NCBI GenBank assembly: GCA_913020725.1
Contig: CAJWCD010000025.1
Span: forward strand, 1 to 30,571
Direction: 5' to 3'
DNA: 30,571 nucleotides
DNA from: an uncultured Pseudomonadota bacterium
Lineage (GTDB): Bacteria > SAR324 > NAC60-12
In this document: piece after piece, positions 982-15,745 of the stretch
Numbering within the stretch: the stretch's first letter is position 1
Layout of the letters: every line of letters starts with the position of its first letter
Notes under the pieces: model-generated
Database searches by the model: none
Told to the model about the DNA's origin: nothing
The model's input: only the letters and a program-made list of their open reading frames with translations
Program-made: the position numbers and the translations under genes

Positions 982-1506
982 TCACAGTGCGTCCTCCAGC
1001 TCTTCCACCAGTTCTTCCAGCACCTCGTCCTCCAGCCCGGTGTAGCGGAAAATCTCCTCGCCATCATGGATCCCGATGATGGTCGGAAAGACCGTTTTTC
1101 CACCCTTGAAGAACTTGCGCGCAATCATCCCCGAGCGGTCACGGTAGACCCTTGCCTCTGGAACCCCAAGGCGGTTTGCAAACGCCTGAACCGCCTCACG
1201 GCTGTCCTCGCGCAAAGGGTCAATGAAGAGCAGGGGCACCTTGGGGAAGCGCTCGTCCATCAGTGAGTTGAGCAGCGGCATCTCCCGGATGCAGGGCTGG
1301 CAGTTGACAAAGAAGAAGCTGACCACGAAGGGCTCGTCCCCGACTCTGCGGGAGTCGAAGCGCTTGCCCTCAAGGCTGCTGATCCAGAAGCTGGGGGCGT
1401 CCCGTGCGAATGCACCTGAATCCAGAAGTGCAGCAAGCAACACCCCAAGCAGAGTCGCACGCACTCTTGGGCTAATCCCCCGCAACCATGCTCCAGAGAA
1501 AATCAT
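982..1506 (-). CDS. TlpA/ResA-like thioredoxin-fold thiol-disulfide oxidoreductase, exported
   Basis: Signal-like N-terminus, APSF..SLEG..F, VVSFFFVNCQPCIREMPLL (CxxC) and cis-Pro motif VFPT. An alternative GTG start lies at 1464. Confidence 0.85.
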   Translation of the reverse strand: MIFSGAWLRGISPRVRATLLGVLLAALLDSGAFARDAPSFWISSLEGKRFDSRRVGDEPFVVSFFFVNCQPCIREMPLLNSLMDERFPKVPLLFIDPLREDSREAVQAFANRLGVPEARVYRDRSGMIARKFFKGGKTVFPTIIGIHDGEEIFRYTGLEDEVLEELVEELEDAL

Positions 1507-2857
1507 CGAGTCCTTTTCGTGAGAGGTGTTTTGAGAGTTTCCTGCCTGCCTTCATGAACGCCCGTGCCGCGAATTCCTCATCCTCTTCCCAGGTTTTCAG
1601 GGGCATCCGGCTTTTTGGGAAGTCCTTGCGGCCAACTTCGCGAACGGTTCCGTCCTCCAGGCGGAAGTGCCGCAGCCTCACCTTGAGCTGGGCGAGTCCG
1701 GCCCACTGGGAGGTCAGCTGTTTTTTGAGCTTGCCCTGGACCTCGAGAACAAGGGCATGCCCGACCTTGCTGGAGGCAAGGGCTTCGGGCAGCTCTTCCA
1801 TGCTTTGGAGCACTTCGAGTTGGGGCTGAAGCTTGAGCCGCAGGGTGGATCGTGCGGTCTGCTGGATGGTGTGGTGGAGTTCGTTTACTGCGTCCCCCAG
1901 CTGGGAATCGGCTGCCGGGTCCCCGGAGGACAGGTGGAGCATGAGCGCTGAGACGCTGGGAAGATCGGAGCGCACAAAGAAGAACTCCCCGTCCTGATGG
2001 CCCTGATTGACAATTGGATGGACCGCCGGGGTCTGGGCGGCGCCTTTGATCGCCATCGTGTCATTGGCGACCAGCCTCGCCATGCGGCTGCCAAGCTCGG
2101 ATGCCGGAAGAAAGACCTTTTGGTTGGCTTCCAGCTGGGCGAGCAGGTGGTAGGCGAAGATGGAGTGCCCCTCCCACTTTGGTCCTCCGTCCGAAACTGG
2201 TTCGTTGCCCCCGGAGGAGAGGCCCCACACCGACTTGAGTTGGGAGCGCTCCCGGATCCATCTGGGTTGGGTGGGCATCTCTTCGGAGGTTCTCTTGATT
2301 CCTCTTGTGAAAAGGTTCCCGCTGAAGCACGAATCGGAGATGAGCAGCTTGTGCCGGGCCTTGACCGCACGGAGTTTGTTGAGGACATCCGAGTTGGAGA
2401 TGTGCTGGTGCCTCTTGCGGAGTTCGCCATCCACCGGAACCCACCAGCCGTCCTCGTTCTTGTCGTACTCGCCATGCCCGGCGTAGTAGATCAGCACATG
2501 ATCATCTGGCCCGGAGGTTTGCTGCAGCCAGTCGATGCCGTCGAGCATCTGGATGCGGGTTGCGTTTCTCAGCAGCCGGACCTCATGCGCGGGATAGCCG
2601 TACTTGCTTGTCAGCAGGGAGGCCAAAGCCTCCGCATCATGCACAGCGGTCTTCAGCGGGGGCCAGTGCAGGTATTCGTTGTTGCCGATGATCAGCGCAC
2701 GATTGCGGGCCTCTCCGGATGCTTTTTCAACAACTGTTTGCTTGACGCCGCGTTGCTGGGCAGAAATGGGGCTGGCGAGCAGCAGGCAGACGAGTAAGAG
2801 CAGGAAGCAGGAGCGCTTCCGGAGGTGAGGACGCGGATGGGGATTGGCGTGACGCAT
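1472..2857 (-). CDS. Caspase-family (peptidase C14) protease with signal peptide and C-terminal extension
   Basis: ALIIGNNEY..WPPLKTAVHDA, NATR, YYAGHG (catalytic His), ISDSCFSG (catalytic Cys), GHSIFAYHLL and QTP. Hydrophobic signal FLLLLVCLLLASPISA. The start is ATG 2857 or GTG 2890. Confidence 0.9.
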   Translation of the reverse strand: MRHANPHPRPHLRKRSCFLLLLVCLLLASPISAQQRGVKQTVVEKASGEARNRALIIGNNEYLHWPPLKTAVHDAEALASLLTSKYGYPAHEVRLLRNATRIQMLDGIDWLQQTSGPDDHVLIYYAGHGEYDKNEDGWWVPVDGELRKRHQHISNSDVLNKLRAVKARHKLLISDSCFSGNLFTRGIKRTSEEMPTQPRWIRERSQLKSVWGLSSGGNEPVSDGGPKWEGHSIFAYHLLAQLEANQKVFLPASELGSRMARLVANDTMAIKGAAQTPAVHPIVNQGHQDGEFFFVRSDLPSVSALMLHLSSGDPAADSQLGDAVNELHHTIQQTARSTLRLKLQPQLEVLQSMEELPEALASSKVGHALVLEVQGKLKKQLTSQWAGLAQLKVRLRHFRLEDGTVREVGRKDFPKSRMPLKTWEEDEEFAARAFMKAGRKLSKHLSRKGLDDFLWSMVAGD

Positions 2858-2916
2858 GGGCCTTTTCCGTGTGCGGGAGTGTTGCCACACTCTTGCTTGC
2901 TGCAGAACTGAACCGA

Positions 2917-8745: not shown

Positions 8746-8780
8746 GGCCCTCTTTCTTAATGCTGCTTCCAAAACGATGG

Positions 8781-8800
8781 TTCACCGCAGAGACGCAGAG
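8781..8800 (+). repeat. Half copy of the TCACCGCAGAGACGCAGAG palindromic repeat family
   Basis: TTCACCGCAGAGACGCAGAG is near-identical to the arms of the hairpin at 15643-15720. Confidence 0.65.
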
Positions 8801-8841
8801 CGCGGATTCATATCTTTCTGTGTCTTGATTCGCCAAATCAA

Positions 8842-10317: not shown

Positions 10318-11016
10318 TCAGACTGGTTTCACGGAAGGAGCGGGCTTGGAGGTTGGTCCTGTGCACACCGACTTGACGGTTTCAGCGTACCACTTGCCGC
10401 CGCGCTTGGAGGGGTAGCGTTTTGTGTTGAGGAATTTGGCAATGCGGTGGTAGCTCAAGCCTTCGCCACGCTGCTCCCGGATGATATGCGCGAGGCGCTG
10501 CTCGCGTTCGTGTGCCACCAAAATCCCCCGCACATAGTGAAATCCGAAAGGGGCGTGTCCGACACGCTCACCCTGGTCGCGCTTGCGTTCGATGAACTCA
10601 CGGGTGCGGTCGGGAATGCGGCGGTTCTCCCAGCGTCCTACATGCCCCAGTGCCTGCAAAACCGCCCTCCCGGATTTGGTGTTGCTGTCCAAATCGTCTG
10701 CCAGCGCCACCAGCCGCACCTTGTGTTCCGCCAATAAGTCCAACAACCCGGCCACCTTGCGGATGTCCCGTCCCAAACGGTCGAGCCTTGGGACGACCAG
10801 CACGGAGACCTTTCCGGAAATGATCAGTTGCTTGAGGTGATTGAGTCGCGGCCAGTGCTCACTGCGATCCGAAATCACAATGTCCCGTAGTGTTTGCTTG
10901 AAGGGCCAGCCCTGCGATTCTGCAAAACTCCGGATCATGCGGGACTGTTGGAGCAGCGAAAATTTTTGGGGGCGGGGGCGGCGACTGTTGATGCGAATGT
11001 ATCCGTAAACACTCAT
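10318..11016 (-). CDS. Serine recombinase/resolvase-family protein with C-terminal recombinase DNA-binding domain; catalytic Ser replaced by Asn
   Basis: GYIRINS (canonical GYxRVST), SLLQQ and LVVPRLDRLGR, followed by GHAPFGF...GLSYHRIAKFLN..YPSKRGGKWYAETVKSV. ATG 11016. Confidence 0.85.
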   Translation of the reverse strand: MSVYGYIRINSRRPRPQKFSLLQQSRMIRSFAESQGWPFKQTLRDIVISDRSEHWPRLNHLKQLIISGKVSVLVVPRLDRLGRDIRKVAGLLDLLAEHKVRLVALADDLDSNTKSGRAVLQALGHVGRWENRRIPDRTREFIERKRDQGERVGHAPFGFHYVRGILVAHEREQRLAHIIREQRGEGLSYHRIAKFLNTKRYPSKRGGKWYAETVKSVCTGPTSKPAPSVKPV

Positions 11017-11050: not shown

Positions 11051-12601
11051 TTAGGTGGTTGCCGGACGGTCGAGGACGCGGTATTGAATCGCCTCGGCAA
11101 CATGAGCGGACTGGATGTTTTCGGAAGCGGCGAGGTCCGCGATAGTCCGGGAAACTTTGAGGATGCGGTCGTAGGCGCGTGCGCTCAAGCCCATGCGTGT
11201 GATGGCGTTCTCCAGCAGGGACCGCGAAGCAACATCCGGGGTTGCGTACTGCTCCAAAAATTTGCTGGAGATGTGGGCATTTGAGCGGATGGGAGTCTCC
11301 CGAAAACGCACCCGCTGCACACCTCTGGCTTGCTCCACTCGTTGACGGACCGTCGCAGTGGATTCGCCACGGCGGGTGTCTGCGAGTTGCGCGTAGTCCA
11401 CAGCAGGCACCTGCACATGCAGGTCAATGCGGTCCAAAAGTGGCCCGGAAATGCGGGTGCGGTAGCGTTCGATCTGCTTGGGGGTGCAGTGGCATTCCTT
11501 GCGGTATTTACCTTCACCGACGCTGCTGCCAGCGTAGCCGCACGGGCAGGGGTTCATCGCCGCTAACAGCATAAAATCGCAGGGGAATTCCAATGACATC
11601 ACGGCCCGCGCAATGGTCAGTTTGCGATCCTCGATGGGCTGTCGCAGCAGTTCAAGGATGTTCCGGGAGAACTCCGGGAGTTCGTCGAGGAACAGCACGC
11701 CGTTGTGGGCGAGCGAGATTTCTCCGGGCGTGGGCACGGTGCCGCCTCCCACCAAGCCCGCTGAGGAGATCGTGTGGTGCGGCGAGCGAAAGGGCCGCTC
11801 CGTGAGCATCGGCGTGTCTGAATGCAGCAGCCCGGTGATGCTGTGGATTTTCGTGCATTCCAGCGCTTCCTCGAAGGAAAGTGTGGGCAACAACGAACCC
11901 ATGCGGCGGGCGAGCATCGTTTTGCCCGATCCCGGAGGTCCGGCCATCAGCAGATTGTGTCCTCCTGCCGCCGCGATTTCGAGGGCGCGTTTCACTTGCT
12001 CCTGTCCCTTGACCTCTTGCAAATCCTCGTAATCCTCTCGATGCGACTGGAACCACTCTTTTGGGTCAAAGCGACCCTGCTCAATCTCAACGCTGCCCTG
12101 AAAATAGCCCACCAATTCCTCCAGCCGTGCAACTGGAACCCTCTGCATGTTCGAGACGATGGCCGCCTCAGCTTCGTTTTCCTTGGGCAACACAAGGCCG
12201 CGCAATCCCTTGGCTTTCGCCGCGATGGTCATGGGCAGCACTCCTGTGACGGGCTTGATCTGTCCGTCCAGCGAAAGCTCCCCCACCATCATGTACTCCG
12301 CCAGCGTTTCCGCAGGCAGCAGTCCCGCCGCCCCCAGCAAGGCAATTGCGATGGGGAGGTCAAACCCGGAGCCAATCTTGCGCAAGGGTGCCGGAGCGAG
12401 GTTGACCACGATTTTGCGGATCGGCAAGCTGAAGCCGGAGTTGGCCAACGCCGCGAGGATGCGGTCCCGGCTTTCCCGGATGGTGCCATCGGGCAATCCG
12501 ACGATGGTGAACTGGCTCAGTCCAAGCGAGAGGTCCACCTCCACGTCAATGCAGTGAGCGTCCACACCGAGGACGGTGGCAGAATGGGTTTTGGCGATCA
12601 T
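11051..12601 (-). CDS. comM: ComM/YifB Mg-chelatase-like AAA+ ATPase (competence helicase)
   Basis: IVGLPD..IRESRDRI, NLAPA..K.GSGFDLPIA, GELSLDG, Walker A GPPGSGKT, RPFRSPHHT, PGEISLAHNGVLFLDE, AMNPCPCG, SGPLLDRID and SARAYDRILKVSRTIADL. RBS AGAGGA. Confidence 0.95.
   Translation of the reverse strand: MIAKTHSATVLGVDAHCIDVEVDLSLGLSQFTIVGLPDGTIRESRDRILAALANSGFSLPIRKIVVNLAPAPLRKIGSGFDLPIAIALLGAAGLLPAETLAEYMMVGELSLDGQIKPVTGVLPMTIAAKAKGLRGLVLPKENEAEAAIVSNMQRVPVARLEELVGYFQGSVEIEQGRFDPKEWFQSHREDYEDLQEVKGQEQVKRALEIAAAGGHNLLMAGPPGSGKTMLARRMGSLLPTLSFEEALECTKIHSITGLLHSDTPMLTERPFRSPHHTISSAGLVGGGTVPTPGEISLAHNGVLFLDELPEFSRNILELLRQPIEDRKLTIARAVMSLEFPCDFMLLAAMNPCPCGYAGSSVGEGKYRKECHCTPKQIERYRTRISGPLLDRIDLHVQVPAVDYAQLADTRRGESTATVRQRVEQARGVQRVRFRETPIRSNAHISSKFLEQYATPDVASRSLLENAITRMGLSARAYDRILKVSRTIADLAASENIQSAHVAEAIQYRVLDRPATT
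12570..12601 (-). repeat. Direct repeat copy 1 (5' end of comM)
   Basis: ATGATCGCCAAAACCCATTCTGCCACCGTCCT; 27/32 identical to 13910-13941. Confidence 0.8.
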
Positions 12602-12616
12602 GATTCCTCTGCTTCC

Positions 12617-13941
12617 TTACAACTGGTCGGTACCGCCCAGCACAAAGGCGCCATAGACGGATGGAGTGTAGCCCTGCGCTCTGAGAGTGTCCCTTGCCGT
12701 GAACCAAGCCTTTGCCAGATTTCCTCCGCTCGCCTCCTGGTGAAAAATCTCCATGAAGATGTGGGGCCTTCGTCTTCAATCGTCCACAAACTGCTGAGAA
12801 CCGCCAAAGTTCCGCCGAGGTAAAAACTGCGGGTCAGTCCCAGCAAATCCTCACCGGACACGCGCTTGCCCATGCCCGTTTCGCAGCCGGAACGCACAAC
12901 GAATTGCGCGGGCAGCGGTTGTTCAAAGATCGCCCGCGCAGTCAGAGCATACGCCCGTTCTCCCCGGCTGAGGAAAACGGTGGAGTCCAGCGGATCGCGG
13001 GACGAGAATTCACCATGCGTCGCCAAGTGCAAAACCCGGACTCCCCGCCCCAGCCTTTGTCGCAACGCAGCTTCGGTGGCTTGTCTGCCCAGCAAAGGTG
13101 TGACTTGGTACAGTTCCCCAAGGCGTTCCGCTTCCTTTCGCGCTCCTGCCAAAGGCACCAGTTCTCCACCAAACTCTGGATCACCCGCAATGACGACGGG
13201 TGTTTCCGAAACAAGCGGTTTTGGCTGACGCAGCAACCATCCGCCATTGGGAAGCACAACCACTGGAGTTTTCAGATCAAACACCCCCCAAGGTACAAAG
13301 TGCAGCGCATCCGCAGGCACAAAATAGAGCATCCGCCCTACAGCCCAAGTCTGTGGCGCCAATCCGGAGGTCAATTCCTGCACGGCCTCGTTCTCATCGT
13401 CCTCGTCGCCGATGGCATCCACGAAATTTCCGAGCCAAATCTGGATTTCCGAGCGCAGGGCGAGGGAGTTCATGGAATGCCCCATGAACGATTTTTCGAG
13501 TTCCAGCGTGCGTTCGATCTCCGTTTCCGCATCGGCCGAACGCCCCATCATCATCAGGATTTGCACACGCAGAAAGGAAATCTGCCAAAGCGTTCCCACC
13601 TCGACCGCCCGGATTTCCGCCGCTTCGAGCGCCAGCAACGCAGCCTCCCCGTCCCCGCCCAAATAAGTGTCGTAGGCCAGTTCCAGTTCCGGAGTGGTCG
13701 GGACACCATAGGGATTTTTTTCGCGGACACGAGGCATCTGAAGGGTTCGGGTTGGCACGGCGGTGGACGGCAGCACGCTACGCGGTGGCGGCCCGGCTAC
13801 AATGAACCGGGCGAGGGTTTCCGGCGGCAATTGCAGTTCCGAGGACTGTCGCTGAAGATCCGGAAGGCCGACGGATAAGCAGCCGGACAAGAACACCAAG
13901 CTCAGGACAAGGACAGCGGCAGCATGAATTTTGGCGATCAT
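12617..13941 (-). pseudogene. CHAT-domain (caspase/HetF-like) TPR lipoprotein, frameshifted near the 3' end and probably internally deleted
   Basis: Lipobox LSGC, TPR-like helices, VP..ALHFVPW, GDPEF, LAGARKEA, HLATHG (His), VVRSGCETG (Cys) and SLW. After IEDEG at GGGG 12763-12766, the canonical CHAT tail HIFMEIFHQE...YTPSVYGAFVLGG continues in another frame to TAA at 12617. As read, the ORF ends at 12598. Confidence 0.8.
13910..13941 (-). repeat. Direct repeat copy 2 (comM-like 5' end forming the start of the CHAT gene)
   Basis: ATGATCGCCAAAATTCATGCTGCCGCTGTCCT encodes MIAKIHAAAVL, versus comM MIAKTHSATVL. Confidence 0.8.
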
Positions 13942-14027
13942 TGCATTGACAGGAAGATTGACGTAAGCTGACAGAAATCTACGGAAGCTGCCACCTGAGC
14001 GCAAGCCAATTCCTAACCCACGGCCAA

Positions 14028-15605
14028 ATGTCTGAGGATTCCTCATCGGTTCAGATCGATCCCATCAGCGGGGATCACTTTGACGACCTCCTGCTGCTGA
14101 TTGATCCGGAAAAAAAACGGAGTGCTCTTGAATCCGCATGGGGGCAGCTTCGCCAGCAAATCCACGCCCACACCTCTCGTCCGGAACACCTTGACCTCAA
14201 CGCTATTTTTTTGGACATCGTGCGGCTGGAGGTGCTGATGTACCCCATCGTGCGGGATTGGAAGCAGCCGCTCTCCAATCAGGAATGGGAGCATCTTGAA
14301 AGTCAATCCAAGCTGCTGGAGCAACAGCAGGAGCGTTTCAAGAAACTCTCGCTTCAATTCCGGCGTTCTCGTCCTGATGCGTATCCGGAGGTTGCGGCTC
14401 TCTTCAACCGAGCACTAGCGACGACGCAGGAATTGCGGAACACTTGGAGCCGTTTCCGGCGCGAATGGCAGGATTACAAGCGCGAGTGGGAAGCGATCAA
14501 CGCACAACGCCGACAGGTTCGTCAACAGCAGCGCAAGGAGGGGCAGTCCACTGAGTCGGAAATCAAACTTCCGGAATACCCGGTCCTACCTGCGGTGTTC
14601 CGGCGTGATCACTGGTTGGTGCAGAGGCTCATCGTGCGGATGCTGGATGTCGAACTGCGGTTCCGAACCCTCCAAAAACCCGAGGACGACGATGGGAAAC
14701 ACCCCGGAGTGAAGTTTCTGGTGGGGGAACTGCGGCGAGTGTTTCAGCACACCCAAGGGTTTGAACTGTTGGACAAGATTAAACTGATCCAACAACGCAA
14801 TGCACAGCTTATTCAGGAATTGGAACCTGCCTTCGGCGAAGCTATCGTCACCCCGGATTTGCACGATGAAGAACACCCCACCAGCGAGCGAAAACCTACA
14901 GCACCCGCTCCAAAAGTTGAGAAACCCGCACAAAAAAACCGCTCCCGGCTTTGGTTGCTTGCGGGCTTGACGGCATTGCTAATGATCGGCGGGGGCTTGT
15001 TTTTTCTGCCAACGAACCCTCAACCGCCACAGACGATCAAGCGGCTCAAGTTCAATCCCAAGGGCACGACCCTGACCGCCGATTCTCCCGAAAATTCCAA
15101 AATTAAATCGGACGGTTTGGAGGCCATGCTGGCATCATTCAATCTCGATTTCGGAATCAAGGACGCCGATCCCCGGATGTTGCGCTTGAACGATGCAAAA
15201 GGCTCCGAGCGGCAAAGTCTCATCAATGAACTGCTGGAAGAATTTGGACAGGAGGCCCGTTTCTTGTTCGCAAATGCAAAAGGCACCGCCCTGTTTTGGA
15301 TGGGCGAGCTTGAACAATTTGCCAATCCGCAACAAGCCCGTAAGGCGTTGGAAAATCTGGAGCGGCGGCTCAAGCGTATCCGTGCGCTTTTCACAGAAGT
15401 CGGGGCAAATCCCAAGAACTCACGGGTTGTTCCGGACCTCGTGGATGGCGAGCCGACCTATGCGTTGGAGTCCGTGACCGCCAAGGGGGAACCTGTCCGC
15501 ATGTACGTTGATGGCGAGGGCGTGCGCCTGCGTTTGAGCAACGGCCAGTTCATGCCGCAGAAACTCTCTCCCCAAGCCGCCCGCAAGCGCTTGGCCCAAC
15601 CCTGA
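14028..15605 (+). CDS. Hypothetical bitopic membrane protein (helical/coiled-coil N-terminus, one TM, C-terminal domain)
   Basis: 525-aa ORF with Q/E/R-rich helices, a Pro-rich linker and TM segment RSRLWLLAGLTALLMIGGGLFFL. Confidence 0.8.
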   Translation: MSEDSSSVQIDPISGDHFDDLLLLIDPEKKRSALESAWGQLRQQIHAHTSRPEHLDLNAIFLDIVRLEVLMYPIVRDWKQPLSNQEWEHLESQSKLLEQQQERFKKLSLQFRRSRPDAYPEVAALFNRALATTQELRNTWSRFRREWQDYKREWEAINAQRRQVRQQQRKEGQSTESEIKLPEYPVLPAVFRRDHWLVQRLIVRMLDVELRFRTLQKPEDDDGKHPGVKFLVGELRRVFQHTQGFELLDKIKLIQQRNAQLIQELEPAFGEAIVTPDLHDEEHPTSERKPTAPAPKVEKPAQKNRSRLWLLAGLTALLMIGGGLFFLPTNPQPPQTIKRLKFNPKGTTLTADSPENSKIKSDGLEAMLASFNLDFGIKDADPRMLRLNDAKGSERQSLINELLEEFGQEARFLFANAKGTALFWMGELEQFANPQQARKALENLERRLKRIRALFTEVGANPKNSRVVPDLVDGEPTYALESVTAKGEPVRMYVDGEGVRLRLSNGQFMPQKLSPQAARKRLAQP

Positions 15606-15745
15606 TGCGGTCGCAAACCGCAGCATTGCCTAAAACATTGCTTCACCGCAGGGGCGCAGAGGGCACAGAGGCTTGTTTTCATACAATTTTTTATCTGCGC
15701 GCTCTGCATCTCTGCGGTGATTTTTCATTTTTTCCGAGACCATCA
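15603..15745. mobile_element. MITE-like element: imperfect terminal inverted repeats enclosing a TCACCGCAG hairpin
   Basis: Left end TGATGCGGTCGCAAA versus reverse complement of the right end TGATGGTCTCGGAAA (11/15). Internal arms TCACCGCAGGGGCGCAGAG (15643-15661) and CTCTGCATCTCTGCGGTGA (15702-15720). Confidence 0.55.

Follow-up and report, generated by a model that had tools for sequence, protein, structure and literature searches.

The comM gene of an uncultured SAR324 bacterium (contig CAJWCD010000025.1 of assembly GCA_913020725.1) is preceded by a 1340-bp cassette, and the CHAT (caspase-like) lipoprotein gene in this cassette begins with a second copy of the comM 5' end. The whole 30,571-nt stretch analysed is referred to here as the window. 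Comparison of filled and empty alleles confirms that the cassette, present in some strains of this species, was inserted right at the comM start. It encodes no recombinase. On balance we favour the view that it entered by a single crossover within a 13-nt core and that it is now a decaying passenger on one of two haplotypes. Most probably the locus is what remains of an old insertion in decay, and not a functioning switch for DNA uptake.

The two comM starts form a direct repeat of 32 nt, 27 of which are identical (84%), with a spacing of 1340 bp; the first 13 nt make up an exact core. Each copy opens a minus-strand open reading frame (ORF), at 12601 for comM and at 13941 for CHAT. The right-hand product begins MIAKTHSATVL-GVDA, as in ComM/YifB. 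The left-hand product begins MIAKIHAAAVL-VLSLVFLSGC and has a lipobox at Cys21 and a CHAT domain (PF12770). A first-pass annotation of the window had described the two MIAK starts, their spacing and their divergence after codon 11, and both the direct-repeat comparison and the two ORFs agree with it. It missed the loss of about 396 internal CHAT codons, a frameshift near codon 393 and a polymorphic codon 9 in the left copy. A search of the 3.45-Mb genome on both strands with the 32 nt that open comM gave one match at 32 of 32 positions and one at 27 of 32, the left copy. All remaining matches reach 22 of 32 or fewer (22 at two sites), so the repeat is not due to chance. A survey of this genome for the same architecture found an upstream copy matching at 25 or more of 32 positions at 11 of 5146 candidate starts. 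Two of these 11 were taken by eye as flagellin paralogues; C121 and C34 were checked and reflect the antisense of a paralogue pair and repeats, and C17+, C21 and C40 fell outside the check.

The empty site is found in relatives. In both congeners (G001 and G002) the DNA that stands ahead of the CHAT start leads straight into comM, and a search with the CHAT query did not find the gene in these genomes (92% and 89% complete). The metagenome contig L083 is a conspecific empty site with flanks that are 99% identical. In three genomes of genus g5, too, comM and the orthologue of the gene at 14028 are divergent neighbours, so the empty state is the older one. The first-pass annotation had proposed that the cassette entered at the start of comM and that comM was restored downstream, and both proposals hold: empty sites are present in two of two congeners, in L083 and in the three genomes of the other genus, and a whole 516-aa comM ORF lies behind the cassette. 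It had also proposed that the cassette captured the promoter and start codon of comM. The region upstream of the CHAT ORF is indeed the native comM upstream region, whereas the driving of CHAT by the native promoter is presumed.

A scan of metagenomes for the repeat gave four stretches, namely the empty L083, the filled L084 and L085, and L086, which has a filled left junction only and then runs into adapter. L085 shows the same 1340-bp repeat spacing, and in run X13 positions 12458-14100 lie within one contig. The window comes from a fragmented genome (204 contigs), which might suggest an assembly or binning artefact, but the filled structure recurs in L084, L085 and L086, in a 44-member protein cluster and in the single X13 contig, and these refute an artefact, leaving it a negligible probability.

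Fifteen runs were listed with at least half of the sequence words, and seven DNA runs among them were compared. The runs were selected through the cassette, which biases allele frequencies towards the filled state, and the evidence consists of assembled contigs, which lose rare variants. Empty and filled alleles occur together in three of the seven runs, with empty to filled depths of 25.5:16.6 in X3, 10.6:10.9 in X6 and 26.2:17.2 in X12; the other four (X1, X9, X10 and X13) have the filled allele only. In X6 the empty joint leads from 12588 to 13929 with 13 shared letters, and a crossover within the core yields exactly this allele. For X3 and X12 the empty allele was inferred from 71-nt pieces that show all four of the differences expected of it. 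At 12864, 13224 and 13245, single contigs of X1 and X12 exit the cassette with loose ends, and these may represent other organisms or insertions in the pseudogene.

CHAT is the sole Pfam match in the cassette. Pfam detected no recombinase, integrase or transposase inside it, PADLOC gave no match for it, and the eight tyrosine-integrase matches in the genome are all on other contigs. The first-pass reading of the cassette as an integrating element thus finds no linked integrase. Its suggestion of a cargo slot is not borne out either, since every filled allele seen bears the same CHAT cargo.

The empty and filled states are inherited haplotypes, with no sign of ongoing excision in the assembled contigs. 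Position 13952, 11 nt before the CHAT start, has the ancestral base in filled alleles and in both congeners and a derived base in the conspecific empty alleles, including L083. The depth of this variant equals that of the empty junction in X3 (25.5), X6 (10.6) and X12 (26.2). If filled chromosomes were still losing the cassette, the resulting empty junctions would lack the variant, contrary to the data. Across comM, L083 is also unlike the filled alleles at 13 of the 21 sites that vary. No circle back-joint was listed among the contigs of the seven runs, from which rare variants are lost. Excision by recombination between the repeats, as suggested in the first pass, is therefore sound as to its expected product but finds no support as a continuing process, given the private single-nucleotide polymorphism (SNP) and the four runs in which no empty allele was seen. 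An active, reversible cassette, in which the repeats recombine to toggle comM expression or to swap cargo, would account for the exact empty allele and for the presence of both alleles in X3, X6 and X12. It is highly improbable given the derived SNP, the distinct haplotype of L083 across comM, the runs without an empty joint and a mutation within the core of one filled allele (L085); moreover, comM is intact in both states and the single cargo is a pseudogene.

comM is whole and under purifying selection. Its product matches TIGR00368 with 611 bits (cut-off 362) and contains the ChlI, Mg_chelatase and Mg_chelatase_C domains. Between the window and L085 the gene has eight synonymous and no nonsynonymous differences, and between the window and L084 seven and none. 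comEC and dprA are also present in the genome. The first-pass idea of a competence switch is at odds with an intact comM that is under purifying selection in filled alleles. The RNA run X16 yielded one contig (12450-12574) that covers comM only and is uninformative on cassette expression.

The CHAT gene is a pseudogene that evolves neutrally. Its deletion and frameshift were located by comparison with an 833-aa homologue, and members of the TPR-CHAT family have a full length and an intact C-terminus that the window gene lacks. The original stop is the TAA at 12617-12619, 15 nt ahead of the comM ATG; the shifted frame continues to a stop that overlaps this ATG, and one of the 15 listed cluster members later returns to frame. 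PF12770 still scores over its cut-off and the catalytic motifs ATHG (His) and SGCETG (Cys) are retained; a leucine three residues before the catalytic Cys has become arginine in ten of ten full-length alleles. Between L085 and the window there are 5 synonymous and 16 nonsynonymous differences (dN/dS 1.12), and between L084 and the window 1 and 3; the contrast with comM in L085 is significant (Fisher p 3e-4). Only 3 of 75 conserved CHAT columns differ in all ten alleles, one of them shared with an intact homologue, so decay before the alleles split was short.

The CHAT family has a patchy distribution across SAR324. Another decayed copy lies at L073:4641-4996 in G027, at the locus of an intact gene in G025. 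In the window itself, 10 kb from the cassette, positions 1472-2890 (minus strand) encode a Peptidase_C14 caspase-domain protein with an apparent signal stretch.

The first 11 codons of CHAT derive from comM, in frame with the lipobox, because none of the 79 best full-length CHAT homologues has a MIAK start near its N-terminus; the absence of this start at loci away from comM is what the insertion reading needs. The closest homologues start MKKILIILLNLLLLSGC and MKIIIQVLCFTLLTGC, and comM was not nearby at any of the eight homologue loci read. Homology to the closest of them, P0001, begins at about residue 10. In 3 of 11 allele proteins and four of seven DNA runs, codon 9 of the stub encodes the Thr of comM, and this Thr9 allele also agrees with comM at nt 25. 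A different account is that the signal peptide of CHAT itself resembled the comM start by chance, that this microhomology guided an illegitimate junction and that nothing of comM is duplicated beyond the 13-nt core. Near homologues open with MKKI or MKII, and both stretches encode small hydrophobic residues, as this account would have it. It is nevertheless improbable: the genome background stops at 22/32, the Thr9 allele brings the stub closer to comM, and the P0001 signal peptide is four residues shorter than the stub version and has no His or Ala run. The first-pass annotation had the comM-like start doubling as a signal peptide. A comM-derived stub does stand in frame with a lipobox, but this putative signal peptide now heads a pseudogene.

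The source of the stub is the comM of this lineage or of a close relative, because the stub shares His6 with the comM of this species (both congeners have Tyr) and, at nt 27 and 36, has the bases of G002 and not those of this species. The stub diverges from native comM right after nt 13 and has three to four fixed differences in the 20 nt from 14 to 33. These exceed what recent decay would give, because neutral decay began shortly before the alleles split and, with so few conserved columns changed, cannot alone explain them. They may have been imported with the donor DNA, have arisen while the gene was whole, or have arisen in an older stub that was fused later. An adaptive shift to a more hydrophobic signal peptide was also considered. 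Hydropathy does rise, yet only two amino-acid changes in the repeat are fixed and Ala9 is polymorphic, and selection is not claimed.

Under the favoured single-crossover reading, the incoming DNA would have been either circular or a fragment acquired by transformation and anchored by homology, and would have brought along CHAT, a ribosome-binding site and a comM start related to the native one. If the donor order was spacer, comM-like start and CHAT, one core crossover with native comM would suffice to produce the structure. CHAT would then be expressed from the native promoter and start codon, and the transcript would also serve comM, translated further downstream by means of the new ribosome-binding site. 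The 15-nt spacer does hold a Shine-Dalgarno-like GAGG, 4 nt ahead of the comM ATG. A 9-nt likeness between the end of the spacer and the comM upstream region of genus g3 was given no weight. CHAT would have stayed complete for some time, its signal peptide beginning with the comM stub, and the loss of about 1.2 kb and of the reading frame would be recent. Each junction falls within the repeat. Single-site differences are all that separates filled from empty alleles ahead of the stub and over the first 80 nt of comM, and there is therefore no foreign tract on either side.

Several points weigh against this reading. A 13-nt exact core within an imperfect 32 nt is short for RecA, and for this reason, and because no donor was found, the route of insertion is only inferred. 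An intact close CHAT donor was not found among longer and near-length proteins (one search covering the best 8000 candidates), in 61 relatives or in the genome collection. The closest full-length CHAT homologues are 58-70% identical and do not adjoin comM, and their G+C content at third codon positions is 0.33-0.34 against 0.64 here. His6 and the G002-like nt 27 and 36 are as compatible with an old duplication in place as with a donor from a sister species. The loss of rare variants from contigs and the selection of runs through the cassette leave room for rare excision. The nearly coincident end points of three other stubs in SAR324 hint at a site-specific system over generic recombination.

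These stubs came from a search for a second match to the first 50 residues of ComM in 88 genomes of the phylum, which is blind to stubs as short as that of the window. A second N-terminal match was present for comM in 4 of 69 genomes, for proS in 0 of 72 and for dapF in 0 of 66 (p 0.012, the related genomes not being independent); an ftsZ control was uninformative because of paralogues. The stubs of G042 (L074), G083 (L103/L104) and G009 (L105/L079) are longer than that of the window and take in 105-150 nt of duplicated DNA from upstream of the gene; their end points lie no more than about 5 nt apart, near codon 43. The stub of G084 (L102) extends to about nt 290. DNA conservation near codon 43 is not unusually high (0.72; range 0.47-0.74 in 27 genes). 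The window stub may have a separate origin, because it is shorter and has no duplicated upstream DNA.

The locus could instead be the shrunken remnant of a site-specific integrative element that entered the comM 5' region and supplied a replacement start, later deletions having removed the integrase and fused the stub to the cargo. We regard this, the main rival, as possible but doubtful. Of the predicted site-specific serine integrases in one survey, 12.4% target magnesium-chelatase-like genes (PMC10083194). The codon-43 stubs belong to three families, second N-terminal matches occur for comM and not for the two control genes, and G026 has an integrase-type island inside comM, although its integrase match is below the cut-off. 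The window stub, however, ends at codon 11-13 and not 43, with no upstream DNA duplicated, and CHAT spans the cassette end to end, so two well-placed deletions would be required. No integrase was seen next to the four other 5' stubs in the 1.8-6 kb read, and three scans of viral contigs (two by pattern, one by protein) found no copy resembling an attachment site. A tblastn search of phage records with the ComM N-terminus gave 20 distant matches. The restored N-terminus here is native, unlike the altered one described at dusA or prfC (PMC8409611).

A wider conjecture is that the SAR324 comM start is a recurrent dock. An undescribed, comM-preserving system would place integrase-free cassettes at a fixed site near codon 43 (here codons 1-4), replacing the comM promoter and start and putting new genes under the comM promoter; the start left behind would here have come to serve as the first part of a lipoprotein signal peptide before CHAT became a pseudogene. 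We consider this unlikely. The in-frame reuse of the stub and the codon-43 breakpoint shared by relatives are the parts worth following, and if that breakpoint is site-specific it would imply an uncharacterised recombinase and a usable landing site.

Other comM rearrangements were seen in the phylum. The cargo in G084 consists of a lipid A acyltransferase and a methyltransferase, and in G083 the stub is followed by an FG-GAP protein. The decayed G009 stub (L105:760-880) has two near-identical 14-nt GC-rich insertions at separate places, along with smaller ones close to the start codon. Extra copies of the comM 3' end stand in tandem in G041 (L140; three copies of nt 1382-1521, about 190 bp apart) and in G071 (L137; several copies). 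Internal comM pieces are duplicated or split around small cargo in L075 (G038), L077 (G037), L078 (G009), L076 (G026) and L081 (G040); this cargo includes a glutathione S-transferase with an alcohol dehydrogenase at about codon 326, an FGE-sulfatase, and an integrase-type island at about codon 185 with a 37-nt repeat. A serine recombinase named by eye beside the split comM of G048 was dropped because Pfam gave no confirmation.

Table 1. Features of the comM locus in the window
Feature	Position	Strand	Remark
Intact comM/yifB, 516 aa, purifying selection in filled and empty alleles	11051..12601	-	TIGR00368
Right repeat copy, start of intact comM	12570..12601	-	Identical to comM start of conspecific empty allele
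Spacer, 15 nt, CHAT stop to comM	12602..12616	-	Empty alleles lack the spacer
CHAT (caspase-like) TPR lipoprotein pseudogene	12617..13941	-	Homologues about 830-890 aa
Frameshift near codon 393	12755..12767	-	15 of 15 listed cluster members (of 44)
In-frame deletion junction, about 396 codons (most of TPR region)	13425..13440	-	All 10 full-length allele proteins examined
Putative CHAT-derived hydrophobic stretch and lipobox (LSGC, Cys21)	13879..13908	-	Aligns with LLLSGC of P0001
Left repeat copy: comM 5' stub, codons 1-11, in frame with CHAT hydrophobic region	13910..13941	-	27/32 to comM
13-nt exact core, left copy (inferred crossover region)	13929..13941	-	Joint: 13 letters fit either side
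Native intergenic region of comM and divergent 14028 gene, now ahead of CHAT ORF	13942..14027	.	Same sequence directly before comM in G001, G002, L083
Divergent flanking gene, family unassigned, marks left flank of empty site	14028..15605	+	

A serine-recombinase-like ORF at 10318-11016 (minus strand) was considered as the enzyme of the cassette and rejected, as it lies outside the repeats, is also present at empty sites and occurs in 50 of 61 genomes. It is single-copy in most of these relatives, and in other genera its orthologues lie elsewhere. At all 15 loci shown, the protein has Asn or Asp at what we take to be the position of the catalytic Ser. It is possibly a domesticated, non-catalytic recombinase conserved across two SAR324 families. 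Two sets of repeats were noted elsewhere in the window. A 22-nt repeat occurs three times at the start of the contig (44-136; spacings 23 and 48 nt). A 27-34-nt intergenic repeat at 8771-8804, 15632-15669 and 15694-15731 has direct and inverted copies, with a hairpin between the 14028 gene and dapF, and by appearance resembles repetitive extragenic palindromic elements.

The locus is a small natural example of a gene added at a competence gene without harm to comM, and of a cargo gene that begins with an in-frame, reused stub of the target site. It places SAR324 among the groups whose comM accumulates foreign DNA, here with the gene preserved and not disrupted. Among the literature matches listed we found no publication on comM insertions in SAR324; most subscription journals lie outside the coverage of that search.

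The present case works like insertion with long target duplication. Integrase-free insertions with duplications of more than 30 bp are found mostly in competent species (Furuta, Abe and Kobayashi 2010, PMC2853133). The shared features are an accessory gene, a unique direct repeat of more than 30 bp, no other mobile element, a conspecific empty site and competence genes. The duplication here exceeds 30 bp narrowly (32 nt, 84%), the empty allele is conspecific, and the insert is below 20 kb (1340 bp) with no other mobile element. The systems of PMC2853133 carry restriction-modification genes, whereas the cargo here is a CHAT lipoprotein only. The repeat, at the 30-bp limit, is also more diverged than the short cases in that paper (44-47 of 46-47) and, unlike them, it includes the start codon and is fused in frame to the cargo.

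Single-crossover insertion-duplication of re-circularised DNA has been shown experimentally in E. coli (PMC3240628). The product is alike, with a partial gene copy, foreign DNA and a full gene copy in order. The E. coli duplications are of 109-950 bp, against 13 nt of exact homology here, and this too counts against the single-crossover reading.

Integrative and mobilizable elements specific for dusA, and SXT at prfC, insert at the 5' end of their target, have short imperfect end repeats and restore the target frame (PMC8409611), as is the case here. The cassette differs from them in having no integrase or directionality factor, no new promoter found, a native N-terminus and no excision seen. 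Only the 15-nt spacer separates the CHAT stop from comM, and a scan of 12400-14300 found no sigma-70 consensus promoter there, nor did it find the native one.

comM is a documented hotspot for foreign DNA, and is usually disrupted (PMC11472951, PMC12378983). AbaR and Tn7-like islands in Acinetobacter interrupt comM internally and lower transformation (PMC11472951, PMC12378983). These islands and the serine-integrase elements (PMC10083194) share their target gene with the cassette. Unlike them, it leaves comM whole and under selection and has no transposase or large serine recombinase. The locus works like known insertion systems, but it departs from each named family in a defining feature.

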